A stretch of DNA of 20,000 nt from an uncultured virus (IMG/VR IMGVR_UViG_3300047554_000629) (lineage: Duplodnaviria; Heunggongvirae; Uroviricota; Caudoviricetes): positions 51,779-71,778 of the IMG/VR virus record IMGVR_UViG_3300047554_000629; one strand, given 5' to 3'. The position numbers were made by a program, and so were the translations under genes. The notes below the pieces were generated by a model. It worked only from the letters and a program-made list of their open reading frames with translations, was not told where the DNA came from and ran no database searches. Of the stretch, positions 3,750 through 17,292 are shown in pieces; within the stretch, counting starts at the first letter, position 1; each line of letters opens with the position of its first letter.

Positions 3750-4133
3750 TTAAATCTCCTGGATGTCAATACCGAACACAGCACGCATCAACTTGTACTT
3801 GATCCGGTAAGCACGGTTCTTCCTGGTGATCGCCGACTTCACATCCTCAACGACTTCACGGCCGTCTACTGTGCGCTTATATCTGAAGTCTGCGATGAAA
3901 TCGCAGACATGGACGCCGTTGACCTCGATACGGTACTTCACCTGCCGATCAAGTTCGTAAATAGCCCCGGCTGCAAGCATATTTTGCAACTGCTGCCAGC
4001 GGGCAAATTCCTTCTTGCTGTCGAAGCCGTTGGTTTTCACGTTGCCGTACTTCGGCCTCTTCTTTTTGCCGCCGCTTTCGGTCAGTCGGCCTTCACGGCG
4101 AGCACGCTCAAGACCTGCACGAAGAGATGCCAC
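3750..4133 (-). CDS. DUF1064-family protein (PD-(D/E)xK nuclease fold)
   Basis: KYGNVK..FDSKKE..R..QL, IADFRY, VVEDVKS and YRIKYKLM motifs. GTG start at 4133 after RBS GGAGG. Confidence 0.88.
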   Translation of the reverse strand: MASLRAGLERARREGRLTESGGKKKRPKYGNVKTNGFDSKKEFARWQQLQNMLAAGAIYELDRQVKYRIEVNGVHVCDFIADFRYKRTVDGREVVEDVKSAITRKNRAYRIKYKLMRAVFGIDIQEI

Positions 4134-4135
4134 GG

Positions 4136-4726
4136 CTATTCCTCCAGGGCTTTGTACAGACCAGCGATCCACTTGTTGGCACTGGTAACTGACTCAATGT
4201 GCTTGTCCCTTGATTCTTTGGCCGACGCAACATCCTTCTCAAGTCTCGCTATTTCGGCCTGCTTCCATTCTTCGGCAGGCACAACGCTTGGCACGTCCAT
4301 CTTGAAACAATAGCAATCGAAATCGATGGACTCCTTTAGCTGCTTGATCATGAACTCCTTCAGACCCTTGTATTCATCGGGGCAAGGCCACATCATAACC
4401 TTCCCAAGCATGGCAGAATACCGACCATACTCAAGACGCTTCCTTAGTATGTATTCTTGGTTTTTGGCAATGAGCGATGCAATCTCTCTCTGCTGAGCAT
4501 CGAGGATGTCCTTCTCACTCATAGCCTTGGCCGCTGCAAGTTCTGACTCGTCTTCTTCCACGATCTTTTGGTAGTAATCGCTCGGTTCTCGCTCCTTCGG
4601 CGGCTGGTCAAAAGAGTCGTCCCGCTGATGCATACACGCGCCCATCCCTCTTGCGCACTGCAACGCAAACTCCCTGAGAGTCGTCACCTTGCCTTCTTGA
4701 ACCTTGCAAGTGTATCCTGTCGGCAT
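4136..4726 (-). CDS. Conserved phage hypothetical protein (MPTGYT type)
   Basis: MPTGYT...FALQCARGMGAC..RD N-terminus and LKEFMIKQL..SIDFDC motif. RBS AAGGAGA. Confidence 0.8.
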   Translation of the reverse strand: MPTGYTCKVQEGKVTTLREFALQCARGMGACMHQRDDSFDQPPKEREPSDYYQKIVEEDESELAAAKAMSEKDILDAQQREIASLIAKNQEYILRKRLEYGRYSAMLGKVMMWPCPDEYKGLKEFMIKQLKESIDFDCYCFKMDVPSVVPAEEWKQAEIARLEKDVASAKESRDKHIESVTSANKWIAGLYKALEE

Positions 4727-4763
4727 AGCAAGTCTCCTTGGGTGTGATGAATCGTGTTATGCC

Positions 4764-4791
4764 ATTGTACTACATCGCCAGAACTTGGCAA
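4764..4791 (-). promoter_or_regulatory. Sigma70-type promoter TTGCCA-N16-TACAAT for the 4726-1670 operon
   Basis: Near-consensus hexamers just upstream of the RBS and ATG at 4726. Confidence 0.6.
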
Positions 4792-4809
4792 CAAGATTCC
4801 AGAATCCAT

Positions 4810-4832
4810 AATCGGCGCATTTCGCGCCTATT
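4810..4832. repeat. 23-bp imperfect palindrome, copy 2 (inverted): AATCGGCGC-ATTTC-GCGCCTATT
   Basis: The arms are the exact reverse complement of the copy 1 arms. It sits 18 bp upstream of the -35 box at 4786-4791. Confidence 0.8.
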
Positions 4833-5442
4833 AGTTAGGAGAGCCTAATGGCCAAAAGCGGTCGTCAGATGATTGGTAGATGGACCGTGTGCTTTATTCC
4901 TGCAAGGTAGCCGAAGCACCTTGAGAGAAGCGGTCAACAGACACTCAGGATTCCACGCAAAGGCCATTCAAAAAACAATCATGGTTTCAGAATTACTGAA
5001 CTTGCAGTCCCAGGTTGTCAGCATTGGACAGGGCCTGGAAATTGGTTGATTGGTTTTGAATGTGAACCGCCGACCCCACGGAAGGTCGGGTTCCTGCTGG
5101 TGGATACGCACAGCGGCTTGTGAGCCGTTGTGCTGCAACCGATTTGCCGCTCGTTTGGTTTGATTGGCTGAATTGGCTGCACACGCCGCCGATATGGGCG
5201 GCTCGCTGGGCCGATGGACCCCGGCTTTCGGAGAACCACTCCAGACCGCTCCTGGGCTTCAGTCACCCTGGGCAGCGATGGGATTAGATTAAAGTGGCTG
5301 CTTTTTTCGGCCCAAGAATCCTTCATGTCGCCTTCTGGCAAACGAGCTTTTTCCCACTAGACAGAAATGCTGAACGTGCTACACTAACACTGTCAGCTTT
5401 GGTAGTGGCCACCGGGTGCTCGTAAAACAACCCGGTGGCCAC
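4833..5442 (-). ncRNA. Candidate structured non-coding RNA or regulatory tract A
   Basis: No convincing ORF. Serial hairpins (e.g. GCACAGCGGCT-TGTG-AGCCGTTGTGC, GCCGCC-GATATG-GGCGGC, CGACC-N8-GGTCG). Preceded on the minus strand by TTGACA-N16-TAAAAA. Confidence 0.4.
5358..5385 (+). promoter_or_regulatory. Promoter TAGACA-N16-TACACT with extended -10 TG, antisense to the leftward block
   Basis: Hexamers seen directly. Followed by a 13-bp hairpin and a T run. Confidence 0.5.
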
Positions 5443-6711: not shown

Positions 6712-7458
6712 TCAACAAACAATCCTGCCAATGTTCCGAAACAGCCGATCATCGGCCTTGCGTTCGCGCTCTACGACTCTGTACAGGTGATCCACAAGCG
6801 GCTTGAACTCACGCATCTTGGCCAATGACTTGGCCTCGATCTGCCGGACCCGCTCTTTGCTGATCCCAAGGTCATTGCCGATGTCCTCAAGGGTTTCTCC
6901 ACCAACGAATCGCCGGACGATGATGCTGTAATACCGCTTGTCGAGGCAGAACGACATGAGGGCCTTGGTCTCTGGCGCAAGGTCTTCTGGAACTTCCTCA
7001 TACTCTGGCCGATCAACAAAATCAAGCTGGTTGGCATCCCTGAACCTGGAGGATGCTTTGATCTGATTTTCGACCACTGACATTGGCAGTACGTGGATTC
7101 TCTTGATCCACTCGTGTTCTTTTGTTGCCCCGATTCTGGTTGTTGCTTTACCAGCGGCCTTATGGATGCAGTTCTTGATCCAGTGGAACGAATATGTTCC
7201 CTTTGAGGCTCCGTGAGACGGATCGTACCGGACAAGGGCCTCGCACATGCCCAAGACACCGGCCTGAATGAAGTCATCGAGCCAGTTGAGGTACAGTTGG
7301 CCTTGTTCGTGGATGTTTGTCATTGCGGCCAGGATGTAGGCGCACCTTCGGGCCTCCTTGTAGACAAGTTGCATGTTGGCCATCACCCATTCCTGATCTT
7401 CTTTGTCAAGCCTTGACTTTGGCTCTTTGGATTGGACAATTCCTTCTGCCGATAACAT
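6712..7458 (-). CDS. Phage-encoded sigma-70 family RNA polymerase sigma factor
   Basis: Region 2 (NMQLVYKEAR...DDFIQAGVLGMCEALVRYDPSHGASKGTYSFHWIK) and region 4 HTH (ETLEDIGNDLGISKERVRQIEAKSLAKMR). RBS AGGAG. Confidence 0.92.
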   Translation of the reverse strand: MLSAEGIVQSKEPKSRLDKEDQEWVMANMQLVYKEARRCAYILAAMTNIHEQGQLYLNWLDDFIQAGVLGMCEALVRYDPSHGASKGTYSFHWIKNCIHKAAGKATTRIGATKEHEWIKRIHVLPMSVVENQIKASSRFRDANQLDFVDRPEYEEVPEDLAPETKALMSFCLDKRYYSIIVRRFVGGETLEDIGNDLGISKERVRQIEAKSLAKMREFKPLVDHLYRVVERERKADDRLFRNIGRIVC

Positions 7459-9114: not shown

Positions 9115-9390
9115 CTAGTTGCGGTCGTCATGGTCTGTTTCGCCTCTGAAGTGCTCTCCAAGTCCGGCAGACGACGCTTGGCCATGAACGGCATGGATTT
9201 CCTCGAATTTCTGGTAAAAACTCCCTGGTTGCCCAGGCAGGTTGCTGCCGGTGCAGGCATAATCGTGGTCGCTCGCATGTGGGCAACGCTTGTTGCCGCA
9301 CGTCGGACACCTTGGCATTTGCCGCTCAAGCAGGTTCGGCGTTCTCTCATGAACACACCGGACACACATGCAATCAAGAAGGTCAGACAT
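9115..9390 (-). CDS. Cys-rich phage protein (CPxCGNKRCPHAxDH...CTGSNxPGQPGS domain, as in Ead/Eaa-like proteins)
   Basis: Motif CPTCGNKRCPHASDHDYACTGSNLPGQPGS. Confidence 0.75.
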   Translation of the reverse strand: MSDLLDCMCVRCVHERTPNLLERQMPRCPTCGNKRCPHASDHDYACTGSNLPGQPGSFYQKFEEIHAVHGQASSAGLGEHFRGETDHDDRN

Positions 9391-10069
9391 GGCCATTGCT
9401 CCCGTTCGTAGATAGCCCGTGTGCAACACCATTTAGCGTAGGACGCACGATCTCGGCTTCAGGTAGCGGAATAGCGACTCTGGACTTAATATCGGCCAGT
9501 AGGGCCAATAGACCGGCTTTGTGGGTGTCTACTTCGGCGAGTGACAAGCCGCCAGAGGTCAGGTCGATTTTCTGGGCCGGACGTTGGTTGTCTGGCATGA
9601 TGGCATACTTGTCCTCGATGGCCGACAGATGGGGGTGCGGATCACGGAGTTTGTAAGTGACTTCGCCGTCTTTGGTTATGGTGATACCGGCGATCATACG
9701 CCGGGCTTCTCGTGGTATCTCGTGTATGGGTTTGGACTTGCCGTTTTCGTCGAATAGATCGGCTGGGTCTTGGTACGCTATTTGTTGCCGGATTTTCCTT
9801 GTGCGCTTGTATTCTATGGCCATTTGGGCGGCTTCGTGGTCCTTGACGTGCTGCTGGACTTCTTTGAGGTACGCGGCCACATCTGGACGTTTGAGTAGTG
9901 AGTAGGCTCGCTGTTGCGCTTGCTTGTCGGTTTGGGCGGTGAAGCCAGCTTGCTTGTAGGCGCGGGCTCTGTTGCCGGTGGCGATGTAGATGTGGACGAA
10001 GTTGGCGTATCGCCCCCTGAGAGTGTTGAACTTCTTGGGCTTGATCGGGTTTGGTTCTCGTTCAGACAT
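9383..10069 (-). CDS. terS: Phage terminase small subunit (Terminase_2-like)
   Basis: N-terminal FVHIYIATGNRARAYKQAGF...AYSLLKRPDVAAYL, then IAYQDPADLFDENG..KPIHEIP...RRMIAGI...YKLRD and KIDLTSGG. Confidence 0.85.
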   Translation of the reverse strand: MSEREPNPIKPKKFNTLRGRYANFVHIYIATGNRARAYKQAGFTAQTDKQAQQRAYSLLKRPDVAAYLKEVQQHVKDHEAAQMAIEYKRTRKIRQQIAYQDPADLFDENGKSKPIHEIPREARRMIAGITITKDGEVTYKLRDPHPHLSAIEDKYAIMPDNQRPAQKIDLTSGGLSLAEVDTHKAGLLALLADIKSRVAIPLPEAEIVRPTLNGVAHGLSTNGSNGHV

Positions 10070-10078
10070 GGTGATGAC

Positions 10079-11584
10079 CTACTGTTTGGCCTCTTGGGTG
10101 TTCACTTGAACATGCGGCTTGGCCTGCTCGATGATTTGGCAGACATCGGCTTCATAGAATTGGGCAGACATCTCGACACTGGCCGTGACAACGCTCGGCT
10201 TGGCCATGTCACAGATGATGGAGAGCTTGGTTACGCCTTTGGGGTTGATGCCGAGTGTTTTACAGAGCATTTGTCCGAATACGGATGATACGTTGAATTT
10301 CGCCTTGGGCTCATTTTTTGCTGGAGTCGCAAACGGGTCTTTGATCATGATAGGACTGCCGCAGCCATCCTCAAAAGAAATAAAAGAGTGCTCGCTTTTT
10401 AAAACAACGACTTTCACCCCGTAAACAAAGTCTGTTAGGCCATACTTGGCGTTTGTACTTTCAAAGAACTTCTCTCCCCAGTAGTTCCTTACATAGTCTC
10501 TGATCTCGTGCGTCCTTGACAGATCGAGCGCTGTCATCTCGCCGCCTATTATCATCAATATGCCTTCACTTGTTGGCCTTCTGAAATGCCTTGCAACATA
10601 TCCAAGAGAGTTGTTTATTGCCATGAATCCAGGCGATCTAGGGTCAGCGCTGGCATGTGGCCAACCACTTACCATCCTTAGAAAATCTCCGTGTAAAATT
10701 TCAGTTGACTCTTCTTTCTGACTGAGCGAGCGGAATGGGTCTTTGATTACGGCATTTTTGACATCGCCGTTAGTCATTTTGGCACAAATCAAAATGCCGT
10801 CCACCTTCCCTTTATCTTTTTTGATAATTATCTCTAATCCGTACAAGAAGTGCGGTAGCCCCCATGCGGAGTTTGGCCAGACGTATTTGGCACCGTTGAC
10901 CCGTGGCTGGTCTCCGACATACGTGGTGCGAATGTGTTCTCTCACTTCGTCTGTTTTTGAAAGAAGGCCAGCAGTTCTCTGGTCAATCTTCATAGAGACC
11001 TGCACAGGCGTCTCGCCGTTTGTAATAGAGGCGATGGCAATGTGAAGCGTTCTTTTGATTTCCAAGTAGTGCGGCGAATTAGGATCAGCATTTGCCTGCG
11101 TCCAGTCAAATGATAGTTCTGGAGTTTCATCGAATGCTTTTACTTGTCCAAGCATCCTCAAGATTTCCTTGCGAATAATATCGGCGCTCAGCCCCTCTGC
11201 TTGCAGAGCCTCAGAAGCAAGACCTTCTGGCTCACGGATAAGGCCAAGCAATAAGTGCTCAGTCCCCACATAGTTGTGATTGAGGCTTCTGGCTTCCTCA
11301 ATCGAGCATTCGATCACTTTTTTCACAAGAGGAGTATGCGAAAGTCTCCCCATCATCGCCGTCTCCAACTTTGGGCCGGTTTGGGCAATTGCTTCCACTC
11401 TCGTTTCGATCTTTCGGAGATCGATGTCGAGGTTTTTCAAGACATTGGCAGCTACTCCTGATCCTTCCTTGACCAGCCCCAGCAAAATGTGCTCGGTGCC
11501 GATGTACTCGTGGCTTAGACGTTGGGCCTCTTGGTTGGCCAGCTGCATCACCTTGCGAACCCTGTCGGTAAATCGTTCATACAT
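10079..11584 (-). CDS. ClpC N-terminal (double Clp-R) domain fused to a tandem duplicated ~115-125 aa domain and a short C-terminal domain; no AAA+ module
   Basis: aa 1-146 is MYERFTDRVRKVMQLANQEAQRLSHEYIGTEHILLGL...NHNYVGTEHLLLGL. aa 159-284 and 306-418 align with each other (W..A.ADP.SP...I...L; LS.T.E.R; N..(W/Y)GL..F.YG; IKDPF). No Walker A motif. Confidence 0.9.
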   Translation of the reverse strand: MYERFTDRVRKVMQLANQEAQRLSHEYIGTEHILLGLVKEGSGVAANVLKNLDIDLRKIETRVEAIAQTGPKLETAMMGRLSHTPLVKKVIECSIEEARSLNHNYVGTEHLLLGLIREPEGLASEALQAEGLSADIIRKEILRMLGQVKAFDETPELSFDWTQANADPNSPHYLEIKRTLHIAIASITNGETPVQVSMKIDQRTAGLLSKTDEVREHIRTTYVGDQPRVNGAKYVWPNSAWGLPHFLYGLEIIIKKDKGKVDGILICAKMTNGDVKNAVIKDPFRSLSQKEESTEILHGDFLRMVSGWPHASADPRSPGFMAINNSLGYVARHFRRPTSEGILMIIGGEMTALDLSRTHEIRDYVRNYWGEKFFESTNAKYGLTDFVYGVKVVVLKSEHSFISFEDGCGSPIMIKDPFATPAKNEPKAKFNVSSVFGQMLCKTLGINPKGVTKLSIICDMAKPSVVTASVEMSAQFYEADVCQIIEQAKPHVQVNTQEAKQ

Positions 11585-11619
11585 GATTTCCTAGTCCTTT
11601 CGTTGCAAAGAGGTCTATC

Positions 11620-11847
11620 TCATGGCTTGTCCGCTTCTTGCTTGTTGTCATCATTCTTGATGCCAAGCCGACGTTCGGCCCAGCGCAACAATGCGTATAC
11701 CACGCCTGCCACTGGAACGCCCAGAGACTTTACCACTTCGTCCTGGTCGATCTTGCTGGCGAGAATCCAGAGCGGCGCAACACATATGACGCCGACAACG
11801 CCTATCTGAACCGTGGGCCAGAAGTGTTTATGTTGGTAGAATTTAAT
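11620..11847 (-). CDS. 75-aa two-TM membrane protein (holin-like) with an apparent ATT start, or a start-codon pseudogene
   Basis: Read by hand: GAGGT-N8-ATT AAA TTC... gives IKFYQHKHFWPTVQIGVVGVICVAPLWILASKIDQDEVVKSLGVPVAGVVYALLRWAERRLGIKNDDNKQEADKP. In-frame TAA just upstream. Confidence 0.5.
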   Translation of the reverse strand: MKFYQHKHFWPTVQIGVVGVICVAPLWILASKIDQDEVVKSLGVPVAGVVYALLRWAERRLGIKNDDNKQEADKP

Positions 11848-11864
11848 AGTGGCTTACCTCAGTG

Positions 11865-12130
11865 TTGATAGCCGATGCGTTTCATCGAGCCTGCTTCCGT
11901 TTCCAGAAGTCTTACTGGCTCTCCGCGCCCGCGCCTAAAAGCACGGCCACGAACTATCATAGCCGCAGCAACATCCCGGTTACAGGATAATCCGCACCAT
12001 TTGCACGAGTTCCGATCACCTAGTTCGGTGTGGCGGTCCAGATTGCGACTATTCCGCCATGCCAACGCAAGGTAAAGGAGGCGGTCCATGTTGGACCTGA
12101 GAAGAGCCGCTTATTGACAACGGCTGTCTC
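11865..12130 (-). mobile_element. Decayed IS200/IS605-family remnant (tnpB 3' end)
   Basis: LGDRNSCKWCGLSCNRDVAAAMIV resembles the TnpB C-terminal CxxCG...RDxNAAxNI motif. Followed by a hairpin CGATG-AAACG-CATCG ending in TCAA. Another hairpin at ~12098-12130. Confidence 0.55.
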
Positions 12131-12181
12131 TGTTTTCGCCCGGCCAGTGTTAGCGCACCGACCGGGCTATTGAAGCGGCAA

Positions 12182-12253
12182 GCCCACGTAGCCTAATGGA
12201 AAGGCACCCTGTTCGTACCGGGAGCTATGTGGGTTCAAATCCTGCCGTGGGCA
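12182..12253 (+). tRNA. tRNA-Thr(CGT), CCA not encoded
   Basis: Acceptor GCCCACG/CGTGGGC, D arm GCCT/AGGC, anticodon loop TTCGTAC, T arm GTGGG-TTCAAAT-CCTGC. Confidence 0.85.
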
Positions 12254-12318
12254 GTTTTCAAACCGTGCGCAGACCGTGCGCGCTTCACTACATAGCATAA
12301 GGACGCGAAGCGGTGCAT

Positions 12319-12459
12319 TCAACTCAAAAACGCTACTGTCTTGCCCCGATCTTCCAATTCTTCCCGCGCGGACCGCCGTAGCCGATCTCGCATCCACTCG
12401 GATAGCTTCTTGCCGTCTTGCTCCGCAGCATCGACAAACGCCTGTTTTTCGGCGATACC
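12319..12459 (-). pseudogene. 5'-truncated ribbon-helix-helix-like gene (AEKQAFVDAAEQDGKKLSEWMRDRLRRSAREELE)
   Basis: Read by hand. The EK..F..AA...G..LS.W.R..L pattern is typical of RHH/CopG-like proteins. The N-terminal beta-strand is missing. Confidence 0.55.
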
Positions 12460-12561
12460 GACGCCGCCGATTGCCCGCAACTTCCGGCACTTGTCGCCAA
12501 GACGGCAGATAACTTCAAGATAGGTGAAGTGTCAGCAGACAAGGCTTACCTGTCGGTCGAA
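12460..12561 (+). pseudogene. Internal fragment of a DDE transposase (IS5/IS4-like, DDE_Tnp_1)
   Basis: DAADCPQLPALVAKTADNFKIGEVSADKAYLSVE contains the ADKAY catalytic-Asp motif. No start codon and no continuation. Confidence 0.7.
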
Positions 12562-12606
12562 AAAAGGCACACGTGGCGATCTCCCACGGTGCAATGAGCG
12601 CCTTGG

Positions 12607-12849
12607 CTAGTCTTCGAGGCGTTCAAGCCATCCGGGTCGGCATATTGCTGTAACGCAAGTACCGGCCCCGGCTTCTTCCCCGTTTCGGTCGAAGATGATT
12701 TCGCGGTTCCCAAATGGCAAATCACCGTATACGCGAAAACGTAACATCCCGTTCGGGTCAACTTCAAATTGAAAAGCTAAACCTGATGCCTGGTCTTCAA
12801 CTATCTGTTCTTTGATCGTCCATGATTTGGCGTCGGTTTTCAACGACAT
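12607..12849 (-). CDS. Hypothetical protein
   Basis: RBS GGAGG, 80-aa ORF with protein-like composition. Confidence 0.6.
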   Translation of the reverse strand: MSLKTDAKSWTIKEQIVEDQASGLAFQFEVDPNGMLRFRVYGDLPFGNREIIFDRNGEEAGAGTCVTAICRPGWLERLED

Positions 12850-13022
12850 GATATTCCTCCGATTGCGGCCAATAATCTGAATTCGCAGTTCTTCAGGCTG
12901 TCAACGTACAGCATCACGCGGCACATCTGGCGGCGCATGCTATCCGGCATCGTCGGCATTCCTTTTGCGCACCTGACAATCTCTTCCCACCACAGTTCAA
13001 ACACGCAATCGCCTGATTTCAT
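12840..13022 (-). CDS. Hypothetical protein
   Basis: 60-aa ORF in the operon. Confidence 0.45.
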   Translation of the reverse strand: MKSGDCVFELWWEEIVRCAKGMPTMPDSMRRQMCRVMLYVDSLKNCEFRLLAAIGGISCR

Positions 13023-13027
13023 TTATT

Positions 13028-13450
13028 TCACCGGAAGATGAACACGATGTCTTTCCGCCCGCCCTCGCCCGGCTCGCACTCCGGGAACCGATACACCGGG
13101 ATCGCCAGCGGCATCTGGCCGCGATAGTACGAACGCGGCCCCAACGCCCATCGAAACTCGACTAGCTTGCGCTCGAATGCTTCCCATGTCGTTGGCGGCA
13201 GCACGTTTGGTTTACCGTGGCTGAGCTTCCAGCGCCATTCCTGCAACGTCGCCAGTTCGCGCCATAGGTACGCTCGATAGCAAGCATCGCATTCCCACTC
13301 GCAGTCATGCCGATGAACCGGATGCTCTTTGAGCCAGCCTACATGCTGTTCGGCTGCGGTTGCGCATCGTTGGGCATGTCCAAGGTTCGGCAGGAATACA
13401 AGATCATCTGGATGGACGGGCAGGCACAGCATTGCCACGACTTCCATCAT
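13028..13450 (-). CDS. Hypothetical protein (LGPRSYYRGQMPLAIPVYRF motif)
   Basis: ATGA overlap with the upstream stop at 13447. Confidence 0.6.
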   Translation of the reverse strand: MMEVVAMLCLPVHPDDLVFLPNLGHAQRCATAAEQHVGWLKEHPVHRHDCEWECDACYRAYLWRELATLQEWRWKLSHGKPNVLPPTTWEAFERKLVEFRWALGPRSYYRGQMPLAIPVYRFPECEPGEGGRKDIVFIFR

Positions 13451-13863
13451 GCCTCGATCCCCATTGCCTTGACGCATTCGGCCATTTCGTCGAATGCCTT
13501 TGTGCCGATCACTCGCCGCAGGCTTGTGGCCTCTGCCCGGCCCCTGGTATTAGCATACCGCAAAGCGTCCACGATGTCTTTGCCGATCTTCTCTTCGTCG
13601 TCTATGACAGCCGGGCTCAAGTAGTCGCAAAGAATATCGTACAATAGCCAGCTGATCGATGGAGTTGCATATGGATGATCAGAGAAGCACTGCTTGGTCC
13701 AGATTCGGCCACGGCATACAACCCTGGCAATGTGCTTGAACTTAAATGAGTTTGCCCATGCCGGAATCTTGTCAAAGTGCTTGGCCTCCCGATAGAGAAG
13801 AGAAACCCTGTGCCGCATGGCAATAATGCTCAGATCGGCAAGGCACAAGTCGAATTCATCCAT
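13447..13863 (-). CDS. Hypothetical protein
   Basis: RBS AAGGAGG before ATG 13863. Confidence 0.6.
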   Translation of the reverse strand: MDEFDLCLADLSIIAMRHRVSLLYREAKHFDKIPAWANSFKFKHIARVVCRGRIWTKQCFSDHPYATPSISWLLYDILCDYLSPAVIDDEEKIGKDIVDALRYANTRGRAEATSLRRVIGTKAFDEMAECVKAMGIEA

Positions 13864-13876
13864 GACAGCCTCCTTG

Positions 13877-14038
13877 TTATCCGTCTTCTGGAATAGTAAC
13901 CCCAGCTTCGATGTCCTTGAGTTTGCCGCCTTCTCCAAATGTACAAGCCAACTCGACTTCGCAATCGTCACCGTAGGAGTTGGCGACCCACTCCTTGATG
14001 ATTTTTTCTATATCGGCATTATCTAGTATGATCTTCAC
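13877..14038 (-). CDS. Small acidic hypothetical protein
   Basis: GTGA overlap with the upstream gene, MKIILDNADIEKIIKEWV. Confidence 0.55.
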   Translation of the reverse strand: MKIILDNADIEKIIKEWVANSYGDDCEVELACTFGEGGKLKDIEAGVTIPEDG

Positions 14039-17181: not shown

Positions 17182-17256
17182 GGGATCGGGCGGGCACGGT
17201 GACACGCGAAAGCATCTGCAGTGCTTTACAACCCGGTTCGACTCCGGGCGATCCAT
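17182..17256 (+). tRNA. Degenerate tRNA-like element (Cys GCA-like, or Ala TGC)
   Basis: Perfect T arm CCCGG-TTCGACT-CCGGG, acceptor GGATCG/CGATCC with a 1-72 mismatch, anticodon arm AAGCA-TCTGCAG-TGCTT, poor D arm. Confidence 0.55.
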
Positions 17257-17292
17257 CTTCCGGCTCACTACTGGACTACAGGAGACAACACT

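Follow-up and report, generated by a model that had tools for sequence, protein, structure and literature searches.

What could a tailed phage gain from joining the head of a host protease complex to fragments of a capsid protein? The question is raised by a gene at 10079..11584 (minus strand) of a 20,000-nucleotide (nt) stretch of DNA, referred to here as the window, from an uncultured virus of the Caudoviricetes (IMG/VR record IMGVR_UViG_3300047554_000629, positions 51,779 to 71,778). The window is the final 20 kb of a 71,778-bp record that is classed as linear and estimated to be 83% complete. The gene, hereafter the fusion gene, lies at the coordinates given in a preliminary description of this DNA; it begins with ATG and encodes 501 amino acids (aa) before a TAG stop. 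We consider it very likely that we are dealing with an intact accessory gene carried by an uncultivated tailed phage from freshwater, with a Gemmataceae-like planctomycete as the probable host, and that its product consists of a full ClpC N-terminal domain without the ATPase rings, two diverged tandem copies of the A-domain core of the phage's own HK97-fold capsid family, and an 83-aa tail. The central claim of the preliminary description, that a host protease-recognition module has been joined to duplicated capsid fragments, finds support in BLASTP, in hhalign and in structural models.

The first 146 residues (11147..11584, minus strand) constitute a ClpC-type N-terminal domain with two Clp_N repeats, each carrying a GTEH motif. 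The Pfam family Clp_N (PF02861) matched aa 1-146 in two stretches, with an expect value (E) of 7.1e-32 and 109.8 bits against a cut-off of 20.7, and it was the sole Pfam family found in the fusion protein: AAA, AAA_2, UVR and ClpB_D2-small gave zero Pfam matches there, whereas planctomycete ClpC controls show all of them. This agrees with the earlier reading of aa 1-146 as a ClpC N-terminal domain whose AAA+ rings have been replaced. In PHROG the same residues, and only these, matched phrog_35667 (function unknown; E 7.5e-39; profile positions 11-153 of 235, the remaining profile being unmatched), with a weaker match to an 'ATP-dependent protease' family. Among PDB chains, the N-domains of ClpC1/ClpC were found at E 2e-40 to 1e-37, as against 5e-13 to 3e-15 for ClpC2-type proteins. 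Residues T6, E31, E109 and K88 align opposite ClpC1 T6, E31, E106 and K85, and both GTEH motifs, the RFT motif and the KK motif are retained. According to PMC12583610, Staphylococcus aureus ClpC has two phospho-arginine (pArg) pockets (mutants T7D, E32A and E106A), a hydrophobic groove for unfolded substrate and a regulatory lysine, K85, and its N-domains touch the M-domains in the resting state; the offset between the S. aureus numbering and the aligned residues is our own mapping. The alignment thus predicts that the pArg-pocket residues and the regulatory lysine are present in the phage domain. Because the AAA+ rings, the M-domain and the ClpP-binding part are absent, the protein should be unable to unfold or deliver substrates; with the D1/D2 rings, the M-domain (UVR) and the D2-small domain all missing from its sequence, we do not regard it as a ClpC/Hsp100 unfoldase.

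Behind this head stand two copies of one domain, repeat 1 (aa 159-284; 10733..11110) and repeat 2 (aa 306-418; 10331..10669), both on the minus strand and both ending in IKDPF. BLASTP of aa 151-295 against aa 296-501 aligned residues 161-291 with 308-425 (33 of 131 identical, 25%; 47 bits; E 8e-12), and the Smith-Waterman score of one repeat against the other, 115, was matched by none of 500 shuffles (26.2 +/- 4.2; z 21.1). The motifs by which the preliminary description had recognized two diverged copies at these positions (W..A.ADP.SP, LS.T.E(V/I)R, N..(W/Y)GL..F.YG and IKDPF) are all visible in the alignment. A 14-nt direct repeat that encodes IKDPF (10332-10345 and 10734-10747) is the same at 13 of its 14 nt, with a spacing of 402 nt, or 134 codons.

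A relative of the repeats is encoded elsewhere in the same genome. Searching the genome with the fusion protein gave a second match at genome positions 29229-29528 (E 1.4e-6, 33% identity to aa 161-255) within an open frame whose 365-aa product, P0002, is encoded about 32 kb from the fusion gene. The gene for P0002 (genome positions 28902-29999, minus strand) closely follows a 129-aa gene that matches Phage_cement and phrog_673 (cement/scaffold-like) and is itself followed by a 188-aa gene without a family match and then by a gene for a Mu gp36-type head-tail adaptor; the rest of the head-tail module consists of a 1,479-aa Mu-type portal, a tape-measure-like protein and tail proteins. Sequence searches with P0002 gave no Pfam match, one PHROG at E 0.06, and PDB sequences of unrelated proteins at E of at least 0.045; one of 41 family members matched Phage_capsid_4 (E 0.0058), and the 68 relatives in the protein collection are all unnamed or 'hypothetical'. 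An 87%-identical capsid protein, P0003/P0074, was also recovered. An AlphaFold model of P0002, made from an alignment of 41 relatives (predicted local distance difference test, pLDDT, 84.4; predicted template-modelling score, pTM, 0.82), returned at least 500 Foldseek matches in the PDB, 378 of them at E <= 1e-3, with HK97-fold shells ranking first (HFTV1 at 1.6e-11, P-SCSP1u, PhiTE, Sf14, lambda, and HK97 at 7.9e-9). Because the model matches HK97-fold shells and the gene occupies the capsid position, we identify P0002 as the HK97-fold major capsid protein of the phage. A scan of viral contigs with P0002 recovered the same virus only, a scan of genome contigs with protein P0004 gave no loci, and neither a large terminase nor a prohead protease was recognized among the 60 open reading frames (ORFs) scanned.

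Both repeats align with one segment of P0002. BLASTP paired aa 161-255 of repeat 1 with P0002 158-257 (30% identity, E 4e-9) and aa 308-412 of repeat 2 with P0002 158-272 (28% identity, E 6e-8), and hhalign placed aa 160-255 and aa 307-395 on positions 160-257 of the 360 in the capsid-family profile, with probabilities of 97.8% (E 1.3e-12) and 97.5% (E 6.2e-12), respectively. Shuffle z values were 17.6 for repeat 1 and 12.6 for repeat 2, with tail and N-domain controls at chance. The homologous cores, aa 160-255 (10820-11107) and aa 307-395 (10400-10666), correspond to capsid positions 157-257. This segment comes after the long spine helix (111-136) and, in the model, contains the helices and strands of what we take to be the axial (A) domain, a name that draws on the known layout of the HK97 fold and on the structural matches given below. 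The capsid resemblance that the preliminary description had suggested is therefore borne out by the family profile as well as by alignment with the phage's own capsid protein, and the pattern that it gave is essentially the family consensus. Past its variable insert, the capsid family shows a similar I-K-x-D; because of this likeness to IKDPF, each 134-aa unit may equal capsid residues 157-290.

A model of repeat 1 (aa 151-300; alignment A3; AlphaFold 2 pLDDT 85.8) shows its elements in the same order as the P0002 segment. When the model was compared by VIA-align with 48,161 representative chains, HK97-fold capsids or encapsulins filled nearly all of the top 50, the best being 8g1r_A (Z 9.0), PhiTE (Z 8.9) and lambda gpE 156-341 (Z 8.2), with HK97 gp5 238-383 at Z 6.0; these values lie in the tool's middling range, and their weight comes from the uniformity of the list together with the sequence statistics. 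For repeat 1, then, the similarity to an HK97-fold domain anticipated in the preliminary description appears in this comparison, on the A-domain half of the capsids. The evidence argues that each repeat is a homologue of the HK97-fold A-domain core. The fusion protein as a whole we judge from its sequence not to be a capsid protein: of the complete fold (N-arm, E-loop, P-domain with spine helix, and A-domain) it appears to hold only the A-domain core.

The remaining parts of the protein are less distinctive. Residues 147-158 (11111..11146), which link the N-domain to repeat 1, lie outside the Pfam match and the repeat alignments, and those linking the repeats (aa 285-305; 10670..10732) are modelled as a helix followed by a low-confidence end. 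The C-terminal tail (aa 419-501, 83 aa; 10082..10330) has no detectable relatives and is unlike the capsid protein or the repeats; library hits here came solely from repetitive proteins, which were considered spurious. A MAFFT alignment that equated the tail with the C-terminal strands of the capsid was rejected for lack of statistical support, since shuffle controls for the tail were at chance (z -0.3, -0.9 and 1.1); the local hhalign alignment of repeat 2 ends at aa 395. When aa 151-501 were aligned globally with capsid proteins by MAFFT, repeat 1 was pushed onto the N-terminal half of the capsid; this alignment was not used for modelling, as it would risk a false whole-capsid fold. ESM Atlas yielded nothing usable on the fusion protein (own model pLDDT 0.52; feature hits below 0.9; structure TM below 0.3).

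From which capsid gene did the repeats come? In a tree of the A-domain core (101 columns) they sit on long branches (1.97 and 1.46), pair weakly with each other (support 63/54) and fall apart from the phage's own capsid protein; constraining them to group with P0002 costs 10.4 log-likelihood units and is not rejected (approximately unbiased test, p-AU 0.149). Their identity reaches 40% to P0021 (over 86 columns) and 34% to P0071, two other family members, and is 28-30% to P0002. The repeats can most safely be described as descendants of this capsid family whose divergence was either ancient or rapid, the donor being the phage's own capsid gene or that of another member.

Is the join between head and repeats real? 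Across 9,503 bp around the fusion gene, a second IMG/VR record, 104,736 bp long, shows 100% identity, and Logan contigs of 18,294 and 41,512 bp from two public runs cover window positions 9800-11900 with zero differing letters, indels or joints, at word depths of 31.6 and 21.5. The possibility, raised in the preliminary description, that reads would fail to support the junction is thus countered by contigs from two runs that span it without difference. Both runs derive from one freshwater sample, possibly the source of this DNA, and so it is the assemblies that are independent and not the sample; the contigs support the assembly of the junction, not an independent occurrence. A ribosome-binding-like AGGA lies 7-10 nt ahead of the ATG, and scans for promoters and terminators gave results no better than shuffles. 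The guanine-plus-cytosine (GC) fraction of the gene is 0.483 (0.507 in the N-domain part and 0.45-0.47 in the repeats), that of the phage being 0.528 overall and 0.532 +/- 0.026 in its ORFs.

How widespread is the architecture? A word-index search with aa 150-501 returned only the query among 1,314 candidates, and an exhaustive HMMER search of 1.84 billion cluster representatives with aa 151-501 gave four matches at E <= 1e-3, namely the query, P0071 and two giant proteins. The latter, a giant helical-repeat protein and a WD40/LRR protein, were set aside as spurious, with many weak repeated stretches and a best pairwise E of 8e-4, which leaves P0071 (E 1.1e-6) as the single real library relative of the repeat region. 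P0071, encoded on a Logan contig of up to 26 kb, is a capsid-like protein shortened to 242 aa; it matches no Pfam family and keeps the A-domain core and the C-terminal strands, without most of the capsid N-terminal half and without the 258-283 insert. A scan of metagenome contigs with the C-terminal region produced 255 pattern matches and no relatives, and a scan of viral contigs with the whole protein recovered the same virus and nine loci that carry the N-domain only (L007-L015). The survey of IMG/VR for Clp_N joined to repeats that the preliminary description had envisaged thus brought up relatives of the N-domain, none of them with repeats. When short Clp_N proteins were sought, 7,809 of 8,000 scored candidates reached E <= 1e-10, a figure that is no census of stand-alone proteins; many of the candidates (71-75% identity, some with an AAA start) are probably fragments of full ClpC on short contigs. 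The fusion architecture is an orphan, present in one virus from one sample and with no second example in the searches made, and no description of such a fusion was found in open-access papers and bioRxiv.

Beginning 9 nt past the stop codon of the fusion gene is terS (9383..10069, minus strand; Pfam Terminase_2, E 5.4e-14; phrog_51), in keeping with the earlier statement that the fusion gene stands directly upstream of it; because the gap is so short, the two genes are probably co-transcribed. The single syntenic relative found, L098, was identified via its terS (43% identity) and is collinear in gene order on both sides. There the homologue of ORF 13447..13971 ends 92 nt ahead of terS and the fusion gene is missing, and no match to the fusion protein was found in the 74-kb record of L098 (67% complete). 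Because L098 is collinear on both sides yet lacks it, we treat window positions 10070-13446 as a variable insert, which holds the fusion gene, a tRNA-Thr gene, small ORFs and ORF 13028..13477. This last ORF (minus strand, 149 aa) lies upstream of the insert, and its homologue in L098 (33% identity; L098:5283-5654) lies downstream of terS; the genes around terS have therefore undergone shuffling. The tRNA-Thr(CGT) gene (12182-12253, plus strand; ARAGORN and Rfam) is separated by about 600 bp from the fusion-gene start, lies on the opposite strand and overlaps a spurious 107-aa ORF.

What does the head say of the host? Relatives of the N-domain are encoded by 587 of 602 pattern-matched genome stretches, and the best 80 of these 587 come almost entirely from Planctomycetota, with a few metagenome-assembled genomes (MAGs) under other labels. 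Heading these 80 are Gemmata (ClpC, 74-75% identity), Limnoglobus, Urbifossiella and other Gemmataceae; by identity, the domain is nearer to host ClpC than to the copies in other phages (49-64%). A McsB-type ATP:guanido phosphotransferase (PF00217; E about 1e-70) was found in four of five planctomycete genomes, and MecA in none of the five. Because the pArg-pocket residues align, an McsB-type kinase occurs in four of these candidate-host genomes and MecA in none, we regard phospho-arginine as the most plausible ligand class of the N-domain. In a Gemmataceae MAG, an McsB-type arginine kinase gene (L026:3-839, plus strand) lies 2.2 kb upstream of a full-length clpC (L026:3001-5550, plus strand), and a DUF362 gene occupies the gap; the genomic distance between kinase gene and clpC is megabases in Limnoglobus roseus.

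Several known systems bear comparison with the fusion protein. With ClpC/ClpC1 (PDB 3WDD, 6CN8, 5HBN and 2Y1R) it shares a full two-repeat N-domain, the difference being that it is phage-encoded and without the AAA+ rings, M-domain and ClpP-binding part. Actinobacterial ClpC2 (PDB 8AD9 and 9P2P), a homologue of the ClpC1 N-domain that stands alone, is reported to bind pArg and the ligands of ClpC1 (PMC13345244, PMC10030653), and it too is a motor-less protein with a ClpC-head-like domain; its head-like domain, however, is C-terminal and belongs to a transcriptional repressor (PMC13345244), whereas in the fusion protein the head is N-terminal and capsid-derived domains follow. The E values against ClpC2-type proteins (5e-13 to 3e-15) and against ClpC1 (2e-40) argue that the fusion protein is not a ClpC2 orthologue. 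It is best filed with the stand-alone Clp_N proteins of phages (phrog_35667; L007-L015), which are likewise phage-encoded, with an N-domain 49-64% identical to its own and a non-ATPase tail, the tail having apparently been swapped for duplicated capsid domains. The L007-L015 proteins themselves are 186-282 aa long, and their tails are short, mutually unrelated and mostly helical-looking, without capsid-like repeats. No terS was detected near their genes by tblastn or Pfam in the 1.5-7.5 kb scanned per locus, and the P0002 capsid family was found in none of the five Clp_N-relative records searched, all five being fragments. L010 carries two Clp_N genes in tandem (4001-4414 and 4602-5024), and a ClpP-family protease gene (L007:6920-7543) lies about 2.3 kb from the Clp_N gene of L007.

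On the capsid side, the repeats are homologous to the A-domain of HK97-fold proteins including P0002, have the same order of helices and strands, and find their structural matches on the A-domain half of lambda gpE and HK97 gp5. Unlike those proteins, they are without N-arm, E-loop, spine helix and P-domain sheet; they occur as a tandem pair joined to a domain of host origin and have lost several family-invariant residues. Ccm of SaPIbov5 retains the whole HK97 fold and co-assembles into shells. It resembles the fusion protein in being a capsid homologue reused as an accessory (PDB 7RWZ; Z 6.5 with the repeat 1 model) and differs in that the fusion protein keeps only the A-domain core. Gp53 of phage SPO1 binds Bacillus subtilis ClpC and stimulates it in the manner of an adaptor. 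It offers a likeness as a phage protein directed at the ClpC system in infection (PMC6873191). The description of Gp53 also sets the two apart: Gp53 stimulates ClpC, whereas the fusion protein copies the head of ClpC and would be expected to compete for its ligands.

What, then, might the protein do? We tentatively propose, as a possible rather than a probable reading, that it is a competitor for ClpC ligands, phospho-arginine in particular, that is addressed to capsid protein. The motor-less head would bind what the head of host ClpC binds, that is, pArg marks placed by an McsB-type kinase and unfolded segments in the hydrophobic groove, and would thereby compete with ClpC rather than feed ClpP. 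The capsid-derived repeats would provide the address, through homotypic A-domain contacts like those at capsomer centres, with newly made unassembled capsid protein or capsomers as docking partners. Expressed with terS while heads are being assembled and packaged, it would shield capsid protein, or other phage proteins that bear the mark, from degradation by McsB-ClpCP. Counted in favour of the proposal, beside the evidence given above on the N-domain, the host and the capsid family, are the 9-nt gap to terS, for its timing, and the location in a variable insert, for its accessory nature; by analogy, SPO1 Gp53 as a modulator of ClpCP (PMC6873191) and ClpC2 as a motor-less pArg binder (PMC13345244) may serve as precedents. 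The domain identities, the duplication, the gene context and the candidate-host kinase are observed; ligand binding, capsid docking and any protective effect are inferred.

A number of points weigh against this proposal. Binding by either module is a prediction; the gene occurs in one virus from one sample, so that there is no comparative evidence of selection; and, because syntenic L098 lacks the gene, it is dispensable for assembly in the lineage of L098. The Foldseek part of the fold comparison anticipated in the preliminary description was not significant by itself: the isolated repeat 1 model had no PDB match at E <= 1e-3, with capsids only at ranks 17, 40, 47 and 50. The alignment behind that model consisted mostly of capsid proteins, and the modelled fold therefore does not count as evidence separate from the sequence homology. 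Among 42 capsid proteins, 18 core columns are conserved at 80% or more; the repeats match 9 and 11 of these, with about 30% agreement elsewhere, and have lost the conserved blocks past the capsid core, so that the capsomer-contact surfaces may not have survived. Lastly, a free N-domain could act on ClpC itself, a different mechanism, since N-domains contact M-domains at rest (PMC12583610).

The main rival to the competitor proposal is that the protein deceives host immunity: soluble tandem A-domains would mimic a capsid surface that is sensed, occupying the sensors or causing them to mis-assemble, while the ClpC head blocks oligomerization by its bulk or ties the captured sensor into the Clp network. 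Accessory and counter-defence genes are typically found in sites like this one, in a variable insert next to a tRNA gene, and a fragment unable to assemble into shells suits a decoy. We nevertheless think this rather unlikely, given that binding of capsid protein normally activates such sensors, which would make a plain mimic harmful to the phage, that the positions conserved between repeats and capsid look like fold-core motifs and do not indicate that the sensed surface has been retained, and that the well-preserved head is given no specific role. In a further reading, which seems to us quite unlikely, the doubled A-domain, sensor-exposed and capsomer-forming in the shell protein, and the stolen head would form a soluble bait that captures recognizers of the A-domain (such as Avs-type immune sensors or the quality-control machinery of McsB/ClpC), and the head would neutralize them or re-route them in the Clp network. 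Were this so, it would provide the first example in nature of a domain from a structural protein that has been exapted into an intracellular decoy and coupled to protease targeting, and a viral counterpart of engineered BacPROTAC logic.

The proximity of terS, directly downstream in the same orientation, and homology to the domain at the capsomer centre also suit a morphogenesis factor. In this reading, tandem A-domains placed at capsomer centres or at vertices during assembly would serve as plug, external scaffold, size determinant or decoration, and the head would recruit or exclude host factors at the procapsid. Capsid-derived helpers are known, and the structural list for repeat 1 contains satellite capsids and a SaPIbov5 procapsid entry whose title names the size-redirecting Ccm. 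This is nonetheless an unlikely explanation: the gene is some 32 kb from the head module and missing from the only syntenic relative, nothing comparable was seen in the size class of the 68 capsid-family relatives or in the library search, and the protein lacks the N-arm, E-loop and P-domain, which make most intra-capsomer contacts. That the repeats resemble other members such as P0021 and P0071 at least as closely as the capsid protein of this phage would fit a weapon against competing phages, a dominant-negative fragment poisoning capsomer assembly in co-infecting relatives with the same capsid family; such a fragment would equally likely poison the phage's own capsid, no evidence of sparing self was seen, and the role of the head goes unexplained, so that we hold this to be very unlikely. 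Least probable of all is a non-functional chimera or an assembly artefact. It would account for a single-virus orphan with GC slightly below that of the genome's ORFs, but the frame is intact over 501 codons behind a ribosome-binding-like AGGA, and the sequence is the same to the base in two IMG/VR records and in two runs that were assembled independently. Moreover, despite a divergence to 25% identity, each repeat retains its match to the capsid profile at E about 1e-12, which speaks for prolonged constraint.

If the competitor proposal is true, planctomycete phages would fight or exploit the arginine-phosphorylation/ClpCP route, and a capsid domain would be reusable as a soluble targeting or decoy module. 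The protein would also be a natural reagent, a self-folding capsid A-domain with a pArg reader, for probing intracellular recognizers of the A-domain, a topical matter in that several Avs sensors are reported to bind exactly the A-domain surface. At present the gene is a one-virus orphan, and its value is that of a well-defined, testable oddity and not of a general principle.

Other features of the phage were observed in passing. Outside the window, a 937-aa TnpB/Cas12f-like protein (L005:10510-13320, plus strand; genome 46510-49323) has HTH_OrfB_IS605, OrfB_IS605 and Cas12f1-like TNB matches at aa 548-902, preceded by an N-terminal extension of about 540 aa without a family match. A tRNA-Ala(TGC) gene at 17182-17257 (plus strand) was called by ARAGORN only, unconfirmed by Rfam. 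At L005:2340-6776 and L004:15164-19603 (both minus strand, outside the window), the 1,479-aa portal protein has a Mu-type portal domain at aa 73-447 and then about 1,000 more residues, and a single 234-aa gene lies between its gene and that of a 1,480-aa protein whose one match, to a tail-associated lysin, is weak. Within the window, positions 6712-7458 (minus strand) encode a phage sigma-70 family factor with regions 2 and 4 (phrog_351).

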